This document shows positions 14,678 through 31,967 of a DNA stretch of 64,000 nucleotides, piece by piece. Source of the stretch: Candidatus Latescibacterota bacterium (GTDB taxonomy: Bacteria; Latescibacterota; UBA2968); NCBI GenBank assembly GCA_965204375.1, contig OZ241986.1, positions 3,712,001-3,776,000 on the forward strand, written 5' to 3'. The translations under genes were made by a program, and so were the position numbers. Every line of letters starts with the position of its first letter. Within the stretch, counting starts at the first letter, position 1. The notes under the pieces are model-generated. The model searched no databases. It saw only the letters and a list, made by a program, of their open reading frames with translations, and was not told the DNA's origin.

Positions 14678-16690
14678 TTACCAACCGTGAACATAATGCC
14701 CATCTCCGAGGGGGAACCAGATGTAGTCAACAAGGGAGGAGAGAAAGACCCCTGCGACGTATCCTATCGGAAGACCGATAAAAAAAGGAGCTGCGCGGCG
14801 ATACAGACCAATGCCCCCGATGCGCATAATCAGGCTCTTGGCGGTCCAGGTCAGGAAGATGGAGAAGGCGTAGATACGGGGACCCGTGGTATTCTGGAAG
14901 GCCAGGCCAAGGGGATGAAGGGGCCACCAGGACAGGCGGTTGCGCAACAATACCAGGAGCAGAACCTCCAGAGCACCGAAAAGACAAACACCTACCTTGG
15001 CGGGGTCGAAGACGGTAAGATCGCTCTCCAGAACTTTCGCCGCCAGCCTGTTGTACGGAGCGACCAGTGATCCCGCCGGGTTAAAAGGTCCTTTGTGCAA
15101 ATTCTGTCCACCGTAGATGTAGGGCAAGTAGATCACGAAGAAGAAGGAGGCGAACAGGCCCGCGAGAAACGCCAGCAGAACGAGCCAGACGACGAGTGAT
15201 CGCCTGCGGGTGAGGCTACTGAGAAGTTTGAAGTGGTGGGGCAGCGCAGGCCAGGCCGGAATGCGGAGATTGCCGAAGAAGGCACCCGTGTTGACCATGC
15301 CGATGCCGACGAGGTCTCCCCGAGAGAGGTTCGCGGTGCCGACCAGGGTCTCCAGCATAGGTCCCCCTTTTACGGCCACTGGAAAAAGATGGGTAAACCC
15401 GCTGGCGGCCGTGAACTTGGCAACGGTCAGGTAGGCGATGTAGAGCATTAGAGTGTGGGCAATGGCCATTGGGAGCGATATCCCGAAGGCGTGCATCAAG
15501 CCGACGATGAAGACGGTAGAGATCCCGAGCCCGAGCAGGGCAATCCGATAGGACGCGGTCCCCTCATCTTTCGGATCACCCACGCCCCCGAGTGCGGTGC
15601 GCCAGACCCGCTGCAGATGGCCCCGCGCGACCCAGACCGACCAGAGCGCCAACAGGACCATTGCGCCGTAGCCCTCCAGATCGAGGATTCCACTGGGAGG
15701 AGCCTGTTGCCCGGACAGTCCAATACCGAAGCCAGTGCGGTTCATGATCCCCAGTTTGAAGATCGCCAGCAGGCGGAACGCCCAGAGGCTGAGCAGGATA
15801 TCCAGGTTGCAGAAGTAGGTAAGCCCGATCACCGTAGGCAGGACGCGGAGATAGACCGGAGGAAAGTCCCTGCTTACATGCACCGCCTTGGTCAGGTAGA
15901 ATCCAAAAACGGTGATTTCGGGCAATACGACCGCGAAGTAACCTGCGATATTCCAGAGAAAGATACCAAATACCAGAAAAAAGCCCGCCCAAAAGACACC
16001 ATCGCGGAAGAGGCGGGGTACCCGCCCCGGCTCGTCGAATCCCGACGTCAACGCCACGGCAAATTGCGCAAGCGGATAGGTCAACCGCTCGGCATCCTCC
16101 CACTGGCGCTGGAGGATGATAAACGCACAGATGCCGGCTGTGAGCACAGCGATGGGGATCGCCGTACCCCAGAAGAGGGGCCTGACCCACCCGATCCAGG
16201 GCACGGGTGTCTCGGGCGCAAGGCCGTCGTAATAGGGCCGTATAACGGCCGGAGACGCATCGGGCATATACCACCAGGGCAGGGCGTCGAAGAACGCCTC
16301 TTCCCACCGGTTCTCGGGGGAGGCGAAGTAGGTGGGTGCAGCCAGAGTACTCGCCCAGTAGCCGGTAAAACCCTCAAAGGGGATGTTTCCGGCGATTCAG
16401 GACATGCTGTAGATCACCAGGAGTTCGGTACCGCTCAACGCCGCCCGGGGGAAGAATGCCTTCAGGCCCAGATTGACAAAGAGCCAGAGACCAAACGGGA
16501 TCAGCATCGCCATCGGAAACTGGGACTTGTTCAGGGAAAAGGAGCCCATGACCATGCCGGCATAGTCGGCATAGATGTTGAGAATTACGACAGTGGCCGC
16601 GCCCAGGAGAACGGAGCGGAGGGTGATGCGGGCGGACGCCTTCTCGGGAGCCTGGCTGGCGTTGGTGTCAAGAGTTGAAGAATCTGGCAT
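14678..16690 (-). pseudogene. DUF6785/DUF6784-like polytopic membrane protein interrupted by one in-frame TGA (16397-16399)
   Basis: ORF pieces 16397-16690 and 14678-16267 share a frame; read-through gives IYSMS*IAGNIPFEGFTGYW..PTYFASPENRWEE, versus paralog IYSMSWIVGTMP...PTYYASPENRWEE. Confidence 0.8.
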
Positions 16691-20225: not shown

Positions 20226-23200
20226 TCAAAACTTCAGGCGTGCGCCGACCACCCAGTTGCGGGGATAGCGGCCCAGTCCCTGGTCGTAACGGTCTATATC
20301 GCCGTCCCCATACTTCAGATAGGTGCCGTTATCCGGGTCTGGCATCTGCTTCCCCCATTGTATCCAATCGAAACCGGTAGTCATGTCGGCCTTGTCGTTC
20401 CAGAGATTGCGGATCTCCAGAAAAGCGGTGGCTGTCATAGTGCCGCCAATGTAGAATTCCTTCTCCAGGTTGATATCGCTAACCAGAGAGATCGGCCCGG
20501 TCCGTCGCTCCTGGGGACCTGTCGGAGGCGTATAGTTGAAGGGAATGCCGGTATGGAGCCGGTAGAGCAACGATATCCGGAGGCTGGCCAGAGGCGCAAT
20601 GTGAAAGTCAGAGGGACTGGAAAAAAGGAATTGCCCACTGAGAATATTGCGCCGGTCAATACCGCTTTGCAGTGTCGGCGTATTGTATCGGCCGATAGTG
20701 TACGCATAAATCCCTGGCTCGAGTATCTCCACCGGAGCGTTCCAGTAGCCATCGGACAGAGGCTCGCCGATTCGGCTATCGTAATCCCTGAGTTGTGCCC
20801 TGGCCCTTTCGGCCAACTGCACCCGCTCCTCCTGGGTGGGCGCATGAGGGACCTCCTGGCCGTCCGCCTGCGCATCCACACCCACGAAGTATTGGTCACT
20901 CATGACGTATGAGGGTCCGACTACGTGGTAGGCTCGCCAGTTCCGAAAGCCGGAGTTATTCATATTTTTTGTCCACGCGAGATTGTACGCCACGTTGAAC
21001 GTGACCATGTTGCTGAACTGCTTTCGCAGAGAGACCTCGAACCCCCGGGACCACTTCCGACCCCGGTTGCCGGATCCCCTCGAAGAGACACCGTCGTACC
21101 CGAAAGCCGGTTCCTCCAGGCGCCAGGAGGTGGAGCCGTTGGTGATAATCCCCATCTGATCCCTATAAAAGGCGGTGACACTGGCAACGTATTCGCCAGC
21201 GAAGTTCCAGTCAAATCCGGCCTCGAAACTGGTTGATTTTTCCGGCTCGATGTCGGACATCCCGGAGACCGCGTGGTGGAACTGCTTCAGGCTGTTGTAC
21301 TTCTCCCTCTGATCGATCTGTCCGTTCCCGTTCACATCCCTGTCCTCTCCGGTCCCGCCGAATTCCCGCTGGTAAAAATTCTGGATATCGGGAAATTGCC
21401 GGAAGACGCCAGTGAAGAACCGGATCGTGGAGCGATCGGTGATGGGATGAGAGACCCCAATCCGGGGACTCCAGGCGTGCAAAATCGGGAGGTCTTCGGT
21501 CACGGGCATGTTTCGAAAGCGCGTCAGGGATTCGTAGTGTCTGAACATCCAGAGCGTGGCGATATTGCGCCAGCCTTTTACCGGGTCCATCGCGTCGAAC
21601 CGGATACCGGCGTTGATCACCAGGCCCTCAAATTCCATCTTGTCCTGGATATAAACTCCGTACTGGATGGGATGAGCCCGCTCCATACCGATGATCGGGT
21701 CGCCCGAACCGCCGGCAAGGCGGATCGTAAAAGCACGGGCCTGGCGGGAGCCTTCCTCGTGGTGATAGAGGCCATAGCGGGTGATCTCAAACCCGGTTTT
21801 GACAAAGTGTCCCTTGGTGATCTGGCTGCTCAGATCGGCTTTGAGGCGCACCCGCTTGTTGTCCATATACTTAAAGGAATAGATGTCCCTCGGCAGAAAG
21901 TACCCCTTGCTGTCGCGCCGCACCCCTTCGGTAACAGGGGGCACATCGCTGGTGTCGGTCAGGGTTTGCTGCCAGTTGAGACGCACTTCATAGAAGGTCG
22001 TGGGGGATAGGGTGTGGGTAAAGAGGAGATACGCCATCCTTTCACTGAAATTCTGTTTGCCCGCTGCGGAATAATCCTCGGGCAGGAAAAGATTGCGTCC
22101 ACCCCTGGTGATACCCCGCACACCCCCGTCGGTATCTCGCAACTGCCCGGCGAAGGGATCATCGGGATCGATCCTCGTATTGGATCCTCCGATTCGCCTG
22201 CTACCTCTGGTTCCGGGATCGAAACCCTCGTAGTAGGCGAAAACCCCGCCCAACTTCACCTTGAAGTTGGGGGACGGCCGGGTGACAAAATTGCCGAAGG
22301 TCTGGATGTTAAACGGCTCGCGGTTGAGCGCGCTGGGATAGATAGGGGCCTTGCGACTGTGGGCCGCATTCACAAAGAAGGAGACATCCTTAGCGATCGG
22401 TCCAGAGGCCGAACCCTCCAAATAGTGCCCGAACACGCCCGTGTAATCGGTGCGTTCATGCACTTTGCGCCCGGTCTCAGGATCGGTCTCATTCGCAAAG
22501 GCCGGGTCACTCCAATCCACCTTGCCTGCGTGGAAGGGATGATCGTAGATATTCGGTCCCCAGTGCCTCTTGGCAGGCAGATCCAGGCGGTATTCCCCAA
22601 AGCCCGTATAGGCGTCCCGGCCCTCTTTGGTGACCAGGCTGATCACGCCGGCCTGAGCGTTGCCGTACTCGGCCTCCATCCCACCGGTAACCACCTGCAC
22701 CTCCTGCAGGGCACTTTTGTTGATGCCCATCCAGGTGGGGGCGACAAATCCGTCGTTGTTGACGAGCCGAACCCCGTCAATTTCCACAAAGGTATCGTTT
22801 GAGCCCGCCATAGACGCATTGTTGCTGCCCCGAATCCGGAGGTTGCCGTCCAGCGACACGCCCGGCTGTAGCGCGATCACCTCATCAAGGGTGCGCGCAA
22901 GGGGCACATTCTCAATGTCCTCGGCATCGACGACATAACGGCTGAAGGTCCGGTCCGGCTCCACTGGTGGTCGCTCGGCAATCACCACCAGCTCTTCGGC
23001 CTGTAGCGCGGCCTCCACCAGGTTAAAATCGACGGTGGTAGTGAAGTCCGCACGCACGACCACATCCTGTTTGGTCGCCGCGGTATAACCGACCATCGAG
23101 GCTTCAAGTTTATACCTGCCAGGTTCGACCGACAGGATGAGAAAATAGCCCTCTGCATCGGTCGTAGCACCCCTGCGGGTGCCCTGGATCACCACGTTCG

Positions 23201-23339
23201 CCCCGGGCAGTGGCGCGCCTGAGGCGTCGGCCACAACACCATTGAGTTTGCCGACCGTCCCGGCAGGCACGTTTGCGGGCGAGAAGGCGACCAGCACCCC
23301 AATGAGAAACGGGCAAACCAAATAATAAAGGTATTTCAT
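20226..23339 (-). CDS. TonB-dependent receptor with N-terminal carboxypeptidase-regulatory-like domain
   Basis: GKLNGVVAD..GAPLPGANV, plug LQPGV..IRG, TGGMEAEYGNAQAGVI, YIQDKMEFEGLVINAGIRFD, SPRIGVSHPI, C-terminal Phe. Confidence 0.92.
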   Translation of the reverse strand: MKYLYYLVCPFLIGVLVAFSPANVPAGTVGKLNGVVADASGAPLPGANVVIQGTRRGATTDAEGYFLILSVEPGRYKLEASMVGYTAATKQDVVVRADFTTTVDFNLVEAALQAEELVVIAERPPVEPDRTFSRYVVDAEDIENVPLARTLDEVIALQPGVSLDGNLRIRGSNNASMAGSNDTFVEIDGVRLVNNDGFVAPTWMGINKSALQEVQVVTGGMEAEYGNAQAGVISLVTKEGRDAYTGFGEYRLDLPAKRHWGPNIYDHPFHAGKVDWSDPAFANETDPETGRKVHERTDYTGVFGHYLEGSASGPIAKDVSFFVNAAHSRKAPIYPSALNREPFNIQTFGNFVTRPSPNFKVKLGGVFAYYEGFDPGTRGSRRIGGSNTRIDPDDPFAGQLRDTDGGVRGITRGGRNLFLPEDYSAAGKQNFSERMAYLLFTHTLSPTTFYEVRLNWQQTLTDTSDVPPVTEGVRRDSKGYFLPRDIYSFKYMDNKRVRLKADLSSQITKGHFVKTGFEITRYGLYHHEEGSRQARAFTIRLAGGSGDPIIGMERAHPIQYGVYIQDKMEFEGLVINAGIRFDAMDPVKGWRNIATLWMFRHYESLTRFRNMPVTEDLPILHAWSPRIGVSHPITDRSTIRFFTGVFRQFPDIQNFYQREFGGTGEDRDVNGNGQIDQREKYNSLKQFHHAVSGMSDIEPEKSTSFEAGFDWNFAGEYVASVTAFYRDQMGIITNGSTSWRLEEPAFGYDGVSSRGSGNRGRKWSRGFEVSLRKQFSNMVTFNVAYNLAWTKNMNNSGFRNWRAYHVVGPSYVMSDQYFVGVDAQADGQEVPHAPTQEERVQLAERARAQLRDYDSRIGEPLSDGYWNAPVEILEPGIYAYTIGRYNTPTLQSGIDRRNILSGQFLFSSPSDFHIAPLASLRISLLYRLHTGIPFNYTPPTGPQERRTGPISLVSDINLEKEFYIGGTMTATAFLEIRNLWNDKADMTTGFDWIQWGKQMPDPDNGTYLKYGDGDIDRYDQGLGRYPRNWVVGARLKF

Positions 23340-23388: not shown

Positions 23389-24102
23389 CTACTGCTGGGT
23401 ATAGAACTTGAACCGCACACCGACGTTGAGCTTCTGGAAAGGGAAGACCTCTTCCAATCCCCAGGCCTCCAGCGGACGCACACTACCCAACACGACGTTA
23501 TACTGCCCTCTCAAGTCGATGGTCAGAGATTGGGAGGTGAAAAACTGCACGCCCAACCCAACATTGAGCCCCAGCGTCATGTGCTGGTCAATCGTAGGCT
23601 CCAGCAGCAGATTCTCGTCCAGAGGCGGCGCGGGCTGACCGGGCCAGATCAGGCCACTGACCTCGTTCTTATATTTAAAATACCCCGTACCCACCACCAG
23701 GTAAGGCGCCCTACCCCCGCCTTCTGCCAGCTTCCTGCCCCCCTGATTGAAATGATACAGCCAGCTAATCGTCCCGCCCATCCAGGTCATCTTCGAACTG
23801 GCCTGTGGGCTGCCATACTCCTGCTTGTCGATCGACCAGAGAAATTTCCGGTTCTCCAGTTCCCCGCCACTGTATTTGACGTAGTGTCCCTCCACTTCGG
23901 CGGTCCACTGCTCGTTGAGGACATAGAGCACCGTCCCACCGAGATTGACACCACCGGAGGGAAACCATTCGTTTAATTTGAAGGTCGGCAGATCGTAGCT
24001 GGCAGCGACGCCAAAGCCCCACGTTCCACCAACTTGCGCAGCGACGCCAAAGGGCCAAGACAGCAGCAAGATCCCCGCTAAGAGCAACATCCTATATCTC
24101 AT
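23389..24102 (-). CDS. Outer-membrane beta-barrel protein (OmpA/OmpW-like)
   Basis: Signal peptide, APYLVVGTG, GLNVGLGVQFF, LNVGVRFKF; AGGAGG RBS before ATG 24102. Confidence 0.8.
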   Translation of the reverse strand: MRYRMLLLAGILLLSWPFGVAAQVGGTWGFGVAASYDLPTFKLNEWFPSGGVNLGGTVLYVLNEQWTAEVEGHYVKYSGGELENRKFLWSIDKQEYGSPQASSKMTWMGGTISWLYHFNQGGRKLAEGGGRAPYLVVGTGYFKYKNEVSGLIWPGQPAPPLDENLLLEPTIDQHMTLGLNVGLGVQFFTSQSLTIDLRGQYNVVLGSVRPLEAWGLEEVFPFQKLNVGVRFKFYTQQ

Positions 24103-24210
24103 AATTCCTCCTTTTTTGAGACCTTCAATCTCCTTGAAAACCACCCCAAAATACTATTAAATCTTCCCGTGCTTCACCTCCTTTCAACGGGCATAAATAC
24201 AAGATTTATC

Positions 24211-24240
24211 TTGACAATAAAAGACAACCCATTTTATTTC
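24211..24240 (+). promoter_or_regulatory. Sigma70-type promoter for a candidate antisense sRNA
   Basis: TTGACA (24211-24216), then TTATTTC at 17/18-bp spacing; same layout as the promoter at 33213. Confidence 0.5.
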
Positions 24241-24245
24241 CTGAC

Positions 24246-24340
24246 CTGGATATGCGAGGAGGTGACAACGCCTCTTCACATCTTTCCAAAGCCGTTAGCT
24301 CCAGTCCCGCCAAGGTCGGTAGCTGACGGCTCTTTTTTTC
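24246..24340 (+). ncRNA. Candidate ~95-nt structured sRNA antisense to the leader of the barrel-TonB receptor operon
   Basis: Hairpin GAGGAGGTG/CGCCTCTTC, then terminator AGCCGTTAGCT/AGCTGACGGCT plus T7; the G-U pairs work only on the + strand. Confidence 0.5.
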
Positions 24341-24348
24341 TTTGAGAA

Positions 24349-24377
24349 AAGATAAACCGTAAGAATTCTTGTGTCAA
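24349..24377 (-). promoter_or_regulatory. Sigma70-type promoter of the barrel-TBDR-cargo-PorV operon
   Basis: Minus strand TTGACA-17 bp-TATCTT. Confidence 0.6.
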
Positions 24378-24418
24378 GCTATTAGTCAAAGTAAACATGT
24401 CCTTCGTCAATTTCATAT

Positions 24419-26410
24419 TCACCAACTATGCACGCTGTGCCCCTGTCCTGGGAACCAGGCAGCGTCGATGAGGAAACACCAGACGACCCCAAACGTGTAG
24501 CCAATCAGCAGACCCAAAAACAGGGGCATGGCCCGGCGGTAGAGAGCCACCCCGCCAACGCGCATCAGGATCGCCTTGCAGACCCAGGCGAAGAAGACCG
24601 GGATGACGAGGGACTTAGAGTTGTCCGAGGCGGATATGGCCAGACCGATGGGATGGATCGACCACCAGGCGAACCGATACCTCAGGAAGGTGAGCAAACC
24701 CATCAGAGCCGCGCCAATGCCAAAGAAGATCATCCGGTCCAGAGCCATTGGCCCAGGTGTCCTCATATGCGACAGGGTAGAGGAAAAGACACTCTTGGGA
24801 TTCCCTTTGTAGTAGAACGCAAAGTTGTAGGCCCCGTGGATGTATCCCAGATAAAGCGTAAGCCAGACCGAGGCGACAAGCCCGACCAATGCACCGACCA
24901 CCACCCAGAACACCAGCATGCGTCGGTTTTTCCGAATTAAGTCACCCAGCTTGACGGCCTGCGCCAGCCCCGGCGCGAACAGGCCCCGGATATAGTCGAT
25001 CAGCGAATATGAGAGAAGCATCGAGGTGAGGGTGGACCCTGTCATCACGTCGGTTCCCCGCATGTCCATCGTAAAGGCCTGTGCGGTAATGGGGGCCTGT
25101 GTGATGACCAGGCCAGTCTCGGAGACGATTCGAGCCATCCCGATGTAAATGATCCCCGTACCGGCCACGAACACCAGTGCTGTAAGGAGGTCCATGCCGG
25201 ATTGATGGATCAGAAACAGGATATACAACAGGCTCAGCAACAGGCCCAAAACCGATGTGCGGTAAGAGAGGATCTCCTGGCGATCGTCGGCTGGATAACG
25301 GGAATTGAGAGCCTTCAAAAAGACGTCCCTCAGATGGTGCCGGGCCACCCAAAGCCGCCAGAGGACCAGGCTGGCCAGCGCGCCGAAACACTGCCAGGAC
25401 TGAATCTCCTGATCTGCGGTGAAAGAGTCCGAGGGTTGTTCGGTCTGCAAGCCCATGCGGTTGATGATGTGCCCTTCCACCACGTGGATCACAAAGAAGA
25501 ACCAGACGCTGAAGAGGACCTCCAGATTAGCGAAGTAAGCAAAGCCAAGGGTGTAGAACTGCAAAGGGCGAACTCGTAGGGACGGCGAGTAGCGCGTGAA
25601 TTGAAAGTAGCCCCCGGAGGGGATAAGGGCGATATCGGGGACGGCGGGAAAGAACCAGGAGAGGGATTTCCAGAAGAAGAGTCCAAACGCCAGAAGGGCC
25701 GCGACCCAGAAGAGCTTGCTCCGCATCAAGGCCGGCCAGAGGCGCTCCGAATCGGCGTCTCTGGCCAATTCAATGGGTATGGAGACCAGCGGGTACACGA
25801 GTTTCTCGTGCTCGACCCACTGCTTTCGAAGGATGACCATCACACACGCCGTTCCAACCAGGATGGCCGCGATGAGGCTGCTCCACCACACCAGCGGGAC
25901 CAGCCAGACCGTCCAGGGAGCCTGTGCACCTGGAGGCAGCCCCTCGTAGAACATCCTCAGGGCCTCGCGGTCAGTGGGCACCATCCAGGTGCTGAGGTGG
26001 GGGTGATAGTATTCGGCCCACTGGTTTTCAGGGGTGGCAAAGTAGAACGGGGAGGTGATGATGCCCAAGAAAAAGCCGGTAATGCCGGAACCGGGGACGA
26101 CCGACCCGACAATACCTATAGCCACGACTGTCAGAAGTTCGGCGGGGGAAAAGGCAAGTCGTTGCCGATAGAGCTTGAGCAGAGGATTGAGAAATCCCAC
26201 CAGGAGGACGAAGAGGGCCAGGAGTGGAAGCTGAAAATAGGCCAGATTAAGCCGGGTGGACTTGACGACCGCTTCGGCATAGGTCACCCAGAGGTTGGTG
26301 AAGATCACAATGGAGAGCCCCAGAGCGACCGCCCGGAATGTGACCCCACGCTCCGGGAACGGACTGGCCTGCGCTTCGGGCCGTGGAGCAGCAATGACAT
26401 TCTCAGACAT
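24419..26410 (-). CDS. DUF6785/DUF6784-like polytopic membrane protein (putative transporter)
   Basis: Many TM segments; TFRAVALG, FATPENQW, RKQWVEHEKLVYPL, WWSIHPIG, GGVALYRRAMPLFLGL. Confidence 0.8.
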   Translation of the reverse strand: MSENVIAAPRPEAQASPFPERGVTFRAVALGLSIVIFTNLWVTYAEAVVKSTRLNLAYFQLPLLALFVLLVGFLNPLLKLYRQRLAFSPAELLTVVAIGIVGSVVPGSGITGFFLGIITSPFYFATPENQWAEYYHPHLSTWMVPTDREALRMFYEGLPPGAQAPWTVWLVPLVWWSSLIAAILVGTACVMVILRKQWVEHEKLVYPLVSIPIELARDADSERLWPALMRSKLFWVAALLAFGLFFWKSLSWFFPAVPDIALIPSGGYFQFTRYSPSLRVRPLQFYTLGFAYFANLEVLFSVWFFFVIHVVEGHIINRMGLQTEQPSDSFTADQEIQSWQCFGALASLVLWRLWVARHHLRDVFLKALNSRYPADDRQEILSYRTSVLGLLLSLLYILFLIHQSGMDLLTALVFVAGTGIIYIGMARIVSETGLVITQAPITAQAFTMDMRGTDVMTGSTLTSMLLSYSLIDYIRGLFAPGLAQAVKLGDLIRKNRRMLVFWVVVGALVGLVASVWLTLYLGYIHGAYNFAFYYKGNPKSVFSSTLSHMRTPGPMALDRMIFFGIGAALMGLLTFLRYRFAWWSIHPIGLAISASDNSKSLVIPVFFAWVCKAILMRVGGVALYRRAMPLFLGLLIGYTFGVVWCFLIDAAWFPGQGHSVHSW

Positions 26411-29587: not shown

Positions 29588-31582
29588 TTACCATCCATGC
29601 GTCCAGTGTGGCGTTGACGGAAACCAGATATAATCCACAAGCGAAGAAAGCGCGCACCCCGTCACATATCCAACGACGAGACCAAAGAAAAACGGACGCA
29701 CGCGATTGTAAAGTGGAATACCGCCAAACCGCAGAATCATATGCTTGGCCGACCACGTCAGGAACATACTGAACGCATAAGTCCTCGACCCCTGGCTAAT
29801 CTGAAAAGCCAGCCCCATCGGATGCAGCGGCCACCAGGGCACGCGATTTCGCAAAAGCGTGAGCAAACCGGCAAAAAGCACACCCAGAACCCACACAGTC
29901 GCCTTGGCCGGATCGAACACCGTCTTATCTGCCTGCACAATAATTGAAACCATGCGATTATAGAGATTCCGATTGCCACCTTGAAAACCGCCCAACCCCA
30001 AATTCTGCGCTGCGTTGTCATAGCCGAGATAAATCGTATAGAGCATAGACGCGAAAAAACACGTCGAAAAAGCCAGAAAAATCGTCCAAACAACCCGCTT
30101 CCGTCTCACTTCGGACGAAAAAATTTTGAGATGATGGGGTAGCGAAGGCCAGACCGGAATGCGGTAATTCCCAAAAAACATATTGGAATTGACGAGACCC
30201 AGACCGACGACCTCCCTGCGCGTAAACGTCGAATAGCCAATCAGACTCTCAATAATACGCCCGCCCCGGACCGCCACCGGAAACAAATAGGAGAACCCAC
30301 TCGCCGCCGTGTATTTCGCAATCGTAAAATAGGCAATATAGAGCAGCACCACCTGAAGAATCGCAAGGGGCAGCGAAAGCCCCATATACGTGACAAACCC
30401 CACCACAAAAACCGTAGAGAGCACCAAACCCACAAGCGCAAAACGGTAAGGGATAAGACCATCATCTTTGGGAGACCGACAGCCTTCCATCGCCGCCTGA
30501 AACACCCTGTGTAAATGTCCCCGAGCAATCCACACGGACCACAGCGCGAGAAACACAAAAGCCCCGTGAGATTCCAAAAGCAGAATCTCATACGCATCTG
30601 CCTGCTGACCCGTATAGCCCACCGTATAGCCAATGCGGTTGATAAATCCCTCTTTCAAAATCGCAAAAAGTCGAAATGCCCAAAAAGAAAGAAGAATATC
30701 GAGATTGCACAGATAGGTCAGCCCAATAACGGGCGGCATGATACGCAGCCTCAAAGGCGGGAAATGTTCTGCAATAATAACATCCTTATTCGCGATACGC
30801 ACCGAATCGTAAATCCCAATATGGGGCAAATTGGGCGCAAAATACGTGATGATATTATAGACATAAACCAATAGCACAACCAGAACGCCCGCCCAGAAGA
30901 TGCCATCTTTAAACATCGCGGGAATGCGCTCTTTACTGTCAAATCCCTCGGTCAGAGCGACGGGAAAAGTCACCAGAGGAAAAGTCAGCTTTTCGGCATC
31001 TTCCCACTGCCTCTGAAAAATAACCGAAACACAAAGCGCAGCCACCACAAGCGCGATAGACAAGCTGAACCACCAGCAAAGTGTGCCTACCCAACTCCCC
31101 CACGGAATACTCTCGCCCGGCGGCAGCCCCTCGTAAAAGGTCGTTATGGACCCCTTAGACACCTGGGGCAATACCCACCAGGGCATAACATCAAAAAGAA
31201 ACTCCTCCCATCGGTTTTCCGGCGAGGCATAATAAGTCGGAGAACTGACAATACCGCCCCAGTACGTGGCCCATCCCGCAACGGGCATCGTCCCCACAAT
31301 CCACGACATACTGTAAATCAAAACGAGTTCAGAACTGGAAAGTGCAATGCGGGGCCAAAAAAATCTGAGAACGAGATTGACGCCAATCCATCCCACAAAA
31401 GGCAGCAACACAGACATCGGGAGTTGCGACTTAACCAGCGCGCTATTGACGAGCACCATGCCCGTATAATTGGTATAAGTATTGAGCAAAACCCCCGTAG
31501 CCACGCCCAATACAACCGCCCGTACAGTAATAACCGGCTGTTTTTGTTCGGATACATCCTCTGAAGGTTGAGCGCGTGCCAT
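29588..31582 (-). CDS. DUF6785/DUF6784-like polytopic membrane protein (third paralog)
   Basis: TVRAVVLG, YASPENRW, QRQWEDAEKLTFPL, WWPLHPMG, GGIPLYNRVRPFFFGL. Confidence 0.8.
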   Translation of the reverse strand: MARAQPSEDVSEQKQPVITVRAVVLGVATGVLLNTYTNYTGMVLVNSALVKSQLPMSVLLPFVGWIGVNLVLRFFWPRIALSSSELVLIYSMSWIVGTMPVAGWATYWGGIVSSPTYYASPENRWEEFLFDVMPWWVLPQVSKGSITTFYEGLPPGESIPWGSWVGTLCWWFSLSIALVVAALCVSVIFQRQWEDAEKLTFPLVTFPVALTEGFDSKERIPAMFKDGIFWAGVLVVLLVYVYNIITYFAPNLPHIGIYDSVRIANKDVIIAEHFPPLRLRIMPPVIGLTYLCNLDILLSFWAFRLFAILKEGFINRIGYTVGYTGQQADAYEILLLESHGAFVFLALWSVWIARGHLHRVFQAAMEGCRSPKDDGLIPYRFALVGLVLSTVFVVGFVTYMGLSLPLAILQVVLLYIAYFTIAKYTAASGFSYLFPVAVRGGRIIESLIGYSTFTRREVVGLGLVNSNMFFGNYRIPVWPSLPHHLKIFSSEVRRKRVVWTIFLAFSTCFFASMLYTIYLGYDNAAQNLGLGGFQGGNRNLYNRMVSIIVQADKTVFDPAKATVWVLGVLFAGLLTLLRNRVPWWPLHPMGLAFQISQGSRTYAFSMFLTWSAKHMILRFGGIPLYNRVRPFFFGLVVGYVTGCALSSLVDYIWFPSTPHWTHGW

Positions 31583-31589
31583 AACGACC

Positions 31590-31967
31590 TTAATCGTCAT
31601 AAGTGACGATAACATCATCGCCATCAATCTCTACCGCATAGGTCTTGACATACACCTCCGGATCCACCAGACAGCGTCCCGTTGAGATTTCAAAAGACCA
31701 CTGATGCCACGGGCAGTGCAAAATCTCGCCATCGCCATCAATGGAAATTTCGCCCTCCCCCATAGAAGGCGGTGCCTGAGTCGTCACCCGACCACCGAGT
31801 GTCCCTGTACAGAGCGGACCATTCTTGTGCGGACAAATATTGCGCACCGCGTAAAACGAACCTCCGACATTAAAAATGCCAATCCCGGCGCGCCCGCGAA
31901 AAGGCACCACAATTTTGCGCTGTCCGGGCGGTATTTCCGAGACCCTGGCAACTACAATACGCGCCAT
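31590..31967 (-). CDS. Rieske [2Fe-2S] ferredoxin
   Basis: NICPH...CPWHQW. Confidence 0.9.
   Translation of the reverse strand: MARIVVARVSEIPPGQRKIVVPFRGRAGIGIFNVGGSFYAVRNICPHKNGPLCTGTLGGRVTTQAPPSMGEGEISIDGDGEILHCPWHQWSFEISTGRCLVDPEVYVKTYAVEIDGDDVIVTYDD

Follow-up and report, generated by a model that had tools for sequence, protein, structure and literature searches.

The closest described counterparts of the element reported here are small RNAs (sRNAs) of Bacteroides. DonS-type sRNAs, as summarised in PMC7366714, are 78–128 nt long, lie divergent to a susC homologue and recur at several polysaccharide utilization loci per genome, and a negative effect has been proposed for them. According to PMC11697453, FopS of B. 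thetaiotaomicron is a multicopy sRNA whose repression of susC-type mRNAs takes place close to their start codon; it carries a conserved single-stranded 5′ seed that pairs in trans, has RbpB (RRM-1) as its partner, and its consensus has been deposited in Rfam. Here we analyzed a 64,000-nt stretch of DNA (the window) from a Candidatus Latescibacterota bacterium (GenBank assembly GCA_965204375.1, contig OZ241986.1, positions 3,712,001 to 3,776,000 of the forward strand), in which an initial annotation had proposed an antisense RNA or riboswitch-like element over the leader of a receptor operon. We are highly confident that the plus strand at 24247-24339 encodes a real sRNA. It is a member of a previously undescribed multi-copy family that, within the genomes searched, is restricted to part of the Latescibacterota, and it faces an operon for a SusC-like TonB-dependent receptor that it may restrain in cis. 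The sRNA family is new; the kind of regulator is already known.

Like DonS, this ~93-nt RNA is divergent to a receptor operon, as are 40 of the 68 family copies with this one included; the family likewise occurs at several receptor loci, and restraint is likewise proposed. Unlike DonS, it comes from another phylum, in which translation is Shine-Dalgarno (SD) dependent and promoters are of the TTGACA type, and the first gene of the operon is usually a small outer-membrane protein (OMP) of the β-barrel kind ahead of the receptor. The members of the Latescibacterota family, compared with DonS by description, also have in common a terminator hairpin that is conserved in sequence, and overlap with the operon mRNA is predicted here for one locus type only. 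This family and FopS agree in being paralogous and multi-copy, with canonical promoters of their own, a Rho-independent terminator and a link to SusC-like receptors. They differ in that the 5′ part is here a closed, variable hairpin and the 3′ hairpin is the conserved part; moreover, no RRM_1 protein, and likewise no CsrA or Hfq, was found in the single-contig genome, which is rated 96% complete, and no Rfam family matched. The layout of FopS and GibS, in which a conserved single-stranded 5′ seed precedes a terminator hairpin, does not describe this sRNA. With hok/mok/sok it has in common an antisense RNA directed against the 5′ part of a longer mRNA, but there is no toxin or leader open reading frame (ORF), a receptor operon lies downstream and the family context differs. 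OmrA and OmrB of Proteobacteria are trans-acting, Hfq-dependent sRNAs that are not encoded beside their targets. The present sRNA resembles them in its proposed target, outer-membrane receptor expression, and differs in adjoining the operon.

The plus-strand RNA and its family

The RNA gene lies antisense in the gap between two minus-strand genes, with the following parts:

24212..24241, plus strand: sRNA promoter, −35 TTGACA at 24212-24217 and a weak −10, either TTTATT at 24234-24239 (16 nt) or TATTTC at 24236-24241 (18 nt)
24247-24339, plus strand: sRNA gene, ~93 nt (fold, conservation, family model)
24247..24288, plus strand: sRNA 5′ domain, an outer helix UGGA/UCCA around hairpin 1, GAGGAGGUG-ACAA-CGCCUCUUC
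24290-24332, plus strand: sRNA 3′ domain, the terminator hairpin GCCGUUAGC...GCUGACGGC with apical CCCGCCAAGGU
24333-24339, plus strand: T7 run after the terminator hairpin

The plus strand from 24241 to 24345 folds at −44.0 kcal/mol (z −4.88), as low as none of 200 shuffles, and the minus-strand complement of the same interval at −37.9 kcal/mol (z −3.52). Three stem pairs are G-U in this genome (alignment columns 15/32, 20/27 and 53/83), with A-C mismatches as their minus-strand equivalents; the two hairpins, the T7 end and the G-U pairs favouring the plus strand, all noticed at the outset, are indeed there. The 5′ arm of the 5′ hairpin is purine-rich and SD-like, the 3′ arm pyrimidine-rich and anti-SD-like, and by both fold and alignment the sRNA is nearly devoid of a single-stranded seed. 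Judged from its sequence, the sRNA is of the independently transcribed bacterial type, with its own promoter, a structure conserved on one strand and a hairpin followed by a U-run, although the −10 is weak here. Motif matches alone are near chance level; significance derives from conservation in relatives and from the RNA family. The octamer TTTATCTT occurs on both strands, at 24205-24212 (plus) and 24356-24349 (minus) of the window; the plus-strand occurrence abuts and overlaps the −35 of the sRNA promoter (TTTATCTTGACA), and the other supplies the −10 (TATCTT) of the minus promoter described below.

When 40 relatives (41 genomes if G000, the genome of the window, is counted) were searched at the DNA level, the orthologous gap was recovered in six same-genus genomes. 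In the alignment of these seven loci, for which pairs were counted on 6 distinct rows, mean column identity over the sRNA stretch is 94% and all 32 predicted pairs are kept (192 of 192 cells paired). Every one-sided stem change is GC/GU or UA/UG, with 20 cells G-U that would be A-C on the minus strand, and none of the 16 pairs of the 5′ domain (alignment columns 4–45) is broken in the 7 sequences. Variation within the genus is slight, which makes the shuffle control weak (16 of 500 shuffles reach the observed score), so plus-strand pairing in this set is suggestive only. The −35 of the sRNA promoter is invariant in 7/7 loci and the −10 varies. Pairwise identity across the 7 species averages 92% in the sRNA, 93% over 24103-24165 and 89% in the minus promoter; the figure for comparison, from third codon positions at the end of the upstream gene, is 74%. 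Two pieces are missing from this genome and kept in the other six: a 22-nt leader stretch (window 24196), and 60–70 nt with a CTGATG...CATCAG hairpin between the T-run and the minus promoter (window 24340). One relative, G020 (L015), has a ~100-nt insertion directly behind the SD-like motif of the leader.

The wider comparison used a covariance model built on the seven orthologous sequences (R1) and a broader one from 35 matches (R2). A DNA similarity search of the window's own genome matched the window alone; a second copy, G000:C1:564803-564894, was visible only to the covariance model (44.8 bits with R1, 62.2 bits with R2, and 10.5 bits for the opposite strand) and has a TTGACA-17-GATATT promoter and a T7 run. 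Of 53 genomes of the order, 26 have family matches, with up to 8 per genome, tandem triplets included; the sample of the phylum comprised 151 genomes, and R2 places the sRNA in 30 of these. Broken down by taxonomic family, it is found in 21/29 genomes of f1, 4/19 of f2, 2/64 of f3, 2/2 of f4 and 0/36 of ten others. The R2 total is 68 matches in 63 non-redundant fetched loci, from which loci duplicating others were excluded, and 65 distinct sequences were used for the pair statistics. Pairing is found in 88.6% of cells, compared with 71.2% in shuffles (none of 500 attains the observed value) and 31–50% in slid controls, figures that are flattered because the alignments were fitted to the model structure and that include many orthologous, hence not independent, rows. 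Changes on both sides are seen in 31 of the 32 pairs, among them all 16 pairs of the 5′ domain (helices 1–3), and there are 184 G-U cells versus 81 A-C cells. An exact TTGACA stands at the right distance upstream of 39 of the 68 copies, a promoter-like score of at least 9/12 precedes 41, and a T-run of at least 4 ends 58. The comparison of homologous structures that the initial annotation had put forward as a check shows a structure that is conserved with strong covariation across the 68 copies and, in the six relatives, with substitutions specific to plus-strand pairing.

Within the family, the sequence of the 5′ domain is variable, with the purine-rich 5′ arm and a CYCCUCA-like 3′ arm kept, and that of the 3′ hairpin is conserved (RGYCGUUAGC ... 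CYCGCCAAR-GU ... GCUAACGRC, then a U-run). When one genome per bacterial or archaeal species was searched, the strict 3′ motif occurred 17 times, in 17 records all titled Latescibacterota or Latescibacteria, and every record title among these matches reads MAG. To our knowledge, Latescibacterota are known only from metagenome-assembled genomes. The Rfam scan suggested at the outset was run and matched no family: there were 0 matches at gathering score over the whole 64-kb window and only noise for the gap at E up to 10 and for seven family loci at E up to 1, the best weak match being preQ1-II at 16.8 bits against a cut-off of 47. Our literature search found nothing on regulatory RNAs of Latescibacterota or Latescibacteria. 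In two genomes of the same taxonomic family (L037:1501-2716 and L038:1501-2664), a stretch of ~1.2 kb next to an HTH transposase-like ORF contains three copies, with the TTGACA promoter and T-run on the first copy only; the second and third copies may be decayed or may be pieces of one longer transcript.

The receptor operon, its leader and the setting of other copies

The remaining features of the locus are these:

24103-24418: intergenic gap of 316 bp between two minus-strand genes
24419..26410, minus strand: upstream co-directional gene for a DUF6785 + DUF6784 membrane protein (ORF list, Pfam)
23389..24102, minus strand: operon gene 1, a 237-aa outer-membrane β-barrel protein with a signal peptide (ORF list, Pfam)
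20226..23339, minus strand: operon gene 2, a 1037-aa TonB-dependent receptor (Pfam)
24349..24377, minus strand: promoter-like site, TTGACA at 24377-24372, 17 nt, TATCTT at 24354-24349; 10/12 matches
24103..24342, minus strand: putative operon leader of ~240 nt, deduced from the minus promoter and from the lack of a nearer sigma70-like site and of a terminator, with a predicted start near 24342
24166..24191, minus strand: small hairpin CCCGU/ACGGG (24166-24170 with 24187-24191) with the SD-like AGGAGGUGA (24182-24174) in its loop
24096..24122, minus strand: OMP translation start region, with the SD AAGGAGG (24113-24107) in the loop of a 6-bp stem (consensus fold, 6 orthologous leaders)

The operon consists of the OMP gene, the receptor gene and then two more genes. 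By Pfam, the receptor has an N-terminal CarboxypepD_reg and a Plug domain, a SusC-like build, and the 237-aa protein matches OMP_b-brl at E 3.8e-5, which is under the curated cut-off. From the stop codon of the DUF6785/DUF6784 gene to the sRNA 3′ end there are 79 nt. Three paralogous DUF6785+DUF6784 genes lie inside 17 kb (window 14678-16267, 24419-26410 and 29588-31627), and the receptor operon, PhyH-like genes and ceramidase-like genes are interspersed among them; two further locus types (L049, L095) likewise have a member of this protein family as the upstream neighbour.

The minus-strand TTGACA-17-TATCTT that had been proposed as the operon promoter is present at 24377-24349, and in a consensus scan it is the sole promoter-like site in 23900-24600 (shuffle mean 0.5). 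Its hexamers are invariant in 7/7 orthologous loci, and its 17-nt spacer is variable at 7 positions. In all seven loci the stretch from the sRNA promoter to the OMP start codon is free of sigma70-like sites, and no minus-strand terminator-like site was found in 23900-24600. If transcription starts near 24342, the first ~95 nt of the leader are the exact complement of the sRNA. Because no minus-strand terminator precedes the operon, read-through from upstream would also cross the sRNA gene. As far as sequence can tell, the operon mRNA therefore likely overlaps the sRNA gene at this locus. The facing promoters are ~95 bp apart here and 150–175 bp apart in the six relatives.

Nearer to the operon, the 6-bp stem at the start region pairs GUCUCA (24122-24117) with UGAGAU (24101-24096) and holds the U and G of the AUG (24102-24100); its pairs are nearly invariant and so offer no covariation either way. 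The stem around the SD-like motif reads CCUGU/GCGGG in relatives, which pairs only on the minus strand, via G-U; in G020 the ~100-nt insertion parts the arms, and the stem is absent from the RNAalifold consensus. We considered and rejected a leader peptide translated from the SD-like motif: the motif has no start codon after it, and one relative has a 1-nt deletion that breaks the open frame. A GAGAAAGGAGG motif resembling AGGAGGUGA adjoins the sRNA promoter at other OMP-type loci.

Other copies of the family sit in comparable places. With neighbour orientation taken from a simple ORF call and OMP and receptor homologues from tblastn plus Pfam, there is a divergent gene on the 5′ side of 58 of the 68 copies and a convergent gene on the 3′ side of 49; the typical position is thus antisense in a gap between two co-directional genes. 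An OMP and/or TonB-receptor homologue is found by tblastn in the divergent operon at 40 of the 68 copies and in other orientations at 0, and OMP homologues are the first gene after the sRNA at many family loci. Three further copies precede a GFO/IDH/MocA oxidoreductase gene, and the longer loci of that type continue with OMP and receptor genes; for the second copy of the window's own genome, the order oxidoreductase, OMP, receptor was confirmed. The other 25 copies have unrelated neighbours, including the two tandem triplets by an HTH transposase-like gene. By eye there are about 15 locus types, with DUF6785, xylose-isomerase-like TIM-barrel, LacI, GntR and PhyH proteins as upstream neighbours. 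All 10 OMP-like genes of the window's own genome precede a receptor gene. This genome also has (G000:C1:2176615-2177304, the L111 upstream region) an orthologue 95% identical to the TIM-barrel-type OMP; even a filter-free search found no family copy in this upstream region, and the sRNA precedes that OMP in the 12 TIM-barrel-type loci studied in other genomes.

The TIM-barrel-type leaders have features of their own. In L042, L045, L047, L050, L051 and L052, the operon strand carries a conserved strong SD and a two-codon mini-ORF ~55–85 nt before the OMP start, in the form ATG-NNN-TGA with a second ATG overlapping the stop, and there are three AAAGGAGG motifs per leader. A candidate near promoter at TIM-barrel-type loci (TTAACA-18-AATATT, in 6/12) was discarded, as it is largely the mirror of the sRNA promoter and is not conserved as a −10.

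Proposed restraint in cis and its alternatives

The best explanation overall, which we hold with barely more belief than doubt, is that this family sRNA restrains the adjacent operon in cis. In this model, the operon would most likely be transcribed from the conserved minus promoter at 24377-24349, with read-through from the upstream gene as the other possible source, and in both cases the first ~95 nt of the ~240-nt leader would be a perfect complement of the sRNA. The sRNA could then form a duplex with the leader, beginning from the mirror-image hairpins, and the duplex would be cleaved or destabilised; a second route to restraint would be the collision of converging polymerases. Action on the operon in cis, whether through antisense overlap or through convergent transcription, seems to us about evenly balanced, leaning if anything toward yes. 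The initial claim of an antisense RNA controlling the receptor operon is therefore sustained in its first half: an sRNA with a promoter and a family faces the operon, as it does at the divergent receptor loci counted above. The control itself we infer.

Several observations weigh against restraint in cis. Both transcription starts are predictions from hexamers. The plus promoter claimed near 24211 has its exact TTGACA at 24212-24217, but its −10 is poor at this locus type (TTTATT or TATTTC; TTTTTT in one relative) and it is absent from the calls of the consensus promoter scan. Similarly, the claim of a ~240-nt leader is supported here by the invariant hexamers and the lack of a nearer site, but the far minus promoter was found at this locus type only (7/7) and at no other; most other locus types have no sigma70-like site anywhere on the operon strand. 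Overlap is thus not a demonstrated trait of the family. The upstream stop codon is often no more than 40 nt away from the sRNA terminator at other types, the distance being 26–38 nt at 10 TIM-barrel-type loci and −4 to 69 nt at LacI types. Of this genome's 10 OMP-receptor operons, just 2 have an sRNA copy, and a filter-free model search of the remaining eight upstream regions gave 9.1 bits at best and no copy. The flattering of the family pair counts noted above counts on this side as well. Finally, a pure cis-antisense RNA has no need of a semi-conserved 5′ hairpin (UGAGGRG...CYCCUCA) or a conserved 3′ loop; conservation of these sequences hints at a protein partner or at trans targets.

These last points lead to the alternative of a divergent, trans-acting sRNA, which we regard as possible but rather improbable. 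Transcription of the operon would then begin in the interval separating its start codon from the sRNA promoter, so that the transcripts never overlap, and the sRNA would act elsewhere or on the ribosome-binding site of its neighbor, by way of the anti-SD-like CCUCCUCA arm or the CYCGCCAAR loop; a protein recognising the 3′ hairpin may also be involved. Such a role would fit the 3′ hairpin sequence kept across paralogues, the SD-like and anti-SD-like composition kept in the 5′ arms, the lack at most locus types of room or a site for a far promoter, and the copy at 564803, a free-standing gene with TTGACA-17-GATATT and a terminator, and FopS (PMC11697453) provides a precedent. Pairing tests speak against it. 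In 21 loci, chosen to represent the 43 whose neighbor is an OMP, receptor or oxidoreductase gene, short-arm pairing was no better with cognate than with non-cognate partners or shuffles for either arm; the 3′ arm plus linker, for instance, paired with the cognate non-overlapping leader and start region at a mean of −13.9 kcal/mol, versus −14.4 for non-cognate and −13.9 for shuffled sequences. Whole-length RNAduplex runs on 45 loci returned long, uninformative duplexes (z mostly small, −3.0 to 2.2, bar one tandem-copy artefact). The complement of the loop, CYTTGGCGRG, is not enriched in the genome (66 occurrences, 51 expected), there is almost no single-stranded seed, and in the seven orthologous loci it is the far promoter that is conserved and a near sigma70-like site that is lacking. 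One site of this kind deserves mention in its own right: GCTTTGGCGAG occurs in the GFO-type operon leader at 5 of 7 such loci (L030:1380-1400; G000:C1, by the second copy) and is the complement of the usual family loop CUCGCCAAAG, with a different loop, CCGCGCAAGG, in the adjacent sRNA copy; it may be a trans kissing site or a chance occurrence.

We weighed three further explanations. The initial annotation had proposed a leader in which an anti-SD (UCACCUCCU, 24265-24257) can pair with AGGAGGUGA (24182-24174); this switch, a variant of it in which the true SD is the partner, or a riboswitch-like sensor, in each case with the plus transcript as a secondary matter, now appears highly improbable. 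The 9-nt inverted repeat 24174-24182/24257-24265 is 100% complementary and the CCCGT/ACGGG stem around the SD-like motif is in the sequence as claimed, the leader is highly conserved, the CCUGU/GCGGG of relatives pairs on the minus strand only, and SD-like motifs recur in other OMP-type leaders. By a rough estimate, however, ~0.15 such 9-mers are expected by chance in 280 nt, so the repeat is not significant alone, and of the 7 species 4 have its pairing unchanged, 1 retains it through a wobble and 2 have lost it, with no compensatory change. The supposed anti-SD is the complement of the SD-like arm of the sRNA 5′ hairpin, a stem arm whose substitutions follow plus-strand pairing. The putative leader, taken over its full 256 nt, is not more stably folded than its shuffles (z −0.77), which together with the lack of an Rfam match leads us to reject a riboswitch; the consensus fold of its 3′ part has a covariation term of just −0.69, and a CsrA reading of the GGA-in-loop motifs was dropped since no CsrA, the potential reader, was found in the genome. 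We give similarly little weight to a mainly terminating or insulating role, in which the hairpin would end the upstream gene in a two-way fashion and separate it from the receptor operon, with the plus transcript as a by-product. The hairpin is indeed near the upstream stop codon at many loci (−17 to 86 nt) and an A-run precedes it on the minus strand, but what comes after the hairpin on the minus strand is UUUGG here, TIM-barrel-type loci lack a U-run at that place, the G-U pairs and T-run favor the plus strand, and a terminator requires neither the strong promoter found before most copies nor a covarying 5′ hairpin. We give next to no credence to a small protein gene or to a hok/sok-like type I toxin-antitoxin pair. 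The predicted transcription is face-to-face over a leader, as in hok/sok, and a 24-codon frame opens with an ATG at 24252 on the plus strand; but this ATG has no SD before it, three relatives have a 1-nt insertion that shifts its frame, the ATG is missing from other family members, and the 58-aa plus-strand and 49-aa minus-strand ORFs are cut in relatives by the indels of 22 and ~60–70 nt. As no small ORF is conserved, the hok/mok/sok analogy drawn at the outset is rejected.

Implications for receptor operons

Taken further, restraint in cis could mean a modular family of gatekeepers, a picture that we offer tentatively and consider doubtful. The constant 3′ hairpin would serve as a handle for a protein or nuclease, and the locus-specific 5′ hairpin would be antisense to the leader of the receptor operon beside it, so that every copy would gate a SusC-like nutrient-uptake operon of its own. 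Latescibacterota and Bacteroidota both belong to the FCB group. If the gatekeeper reading is true, antisense control of glycan-uptake operons would be either an old trait shared with Bacteroidota or one that has arisen twice.

In summary, we found an RNA family whose covariance model and 68 members can be used for annotating Latescibacterota genomes. It links RNA-level control to outer-membrane receptor operons for substrate uptake, and extends the picture of sRNAs at susC-like operons known from Bacteroides to a second phylum.

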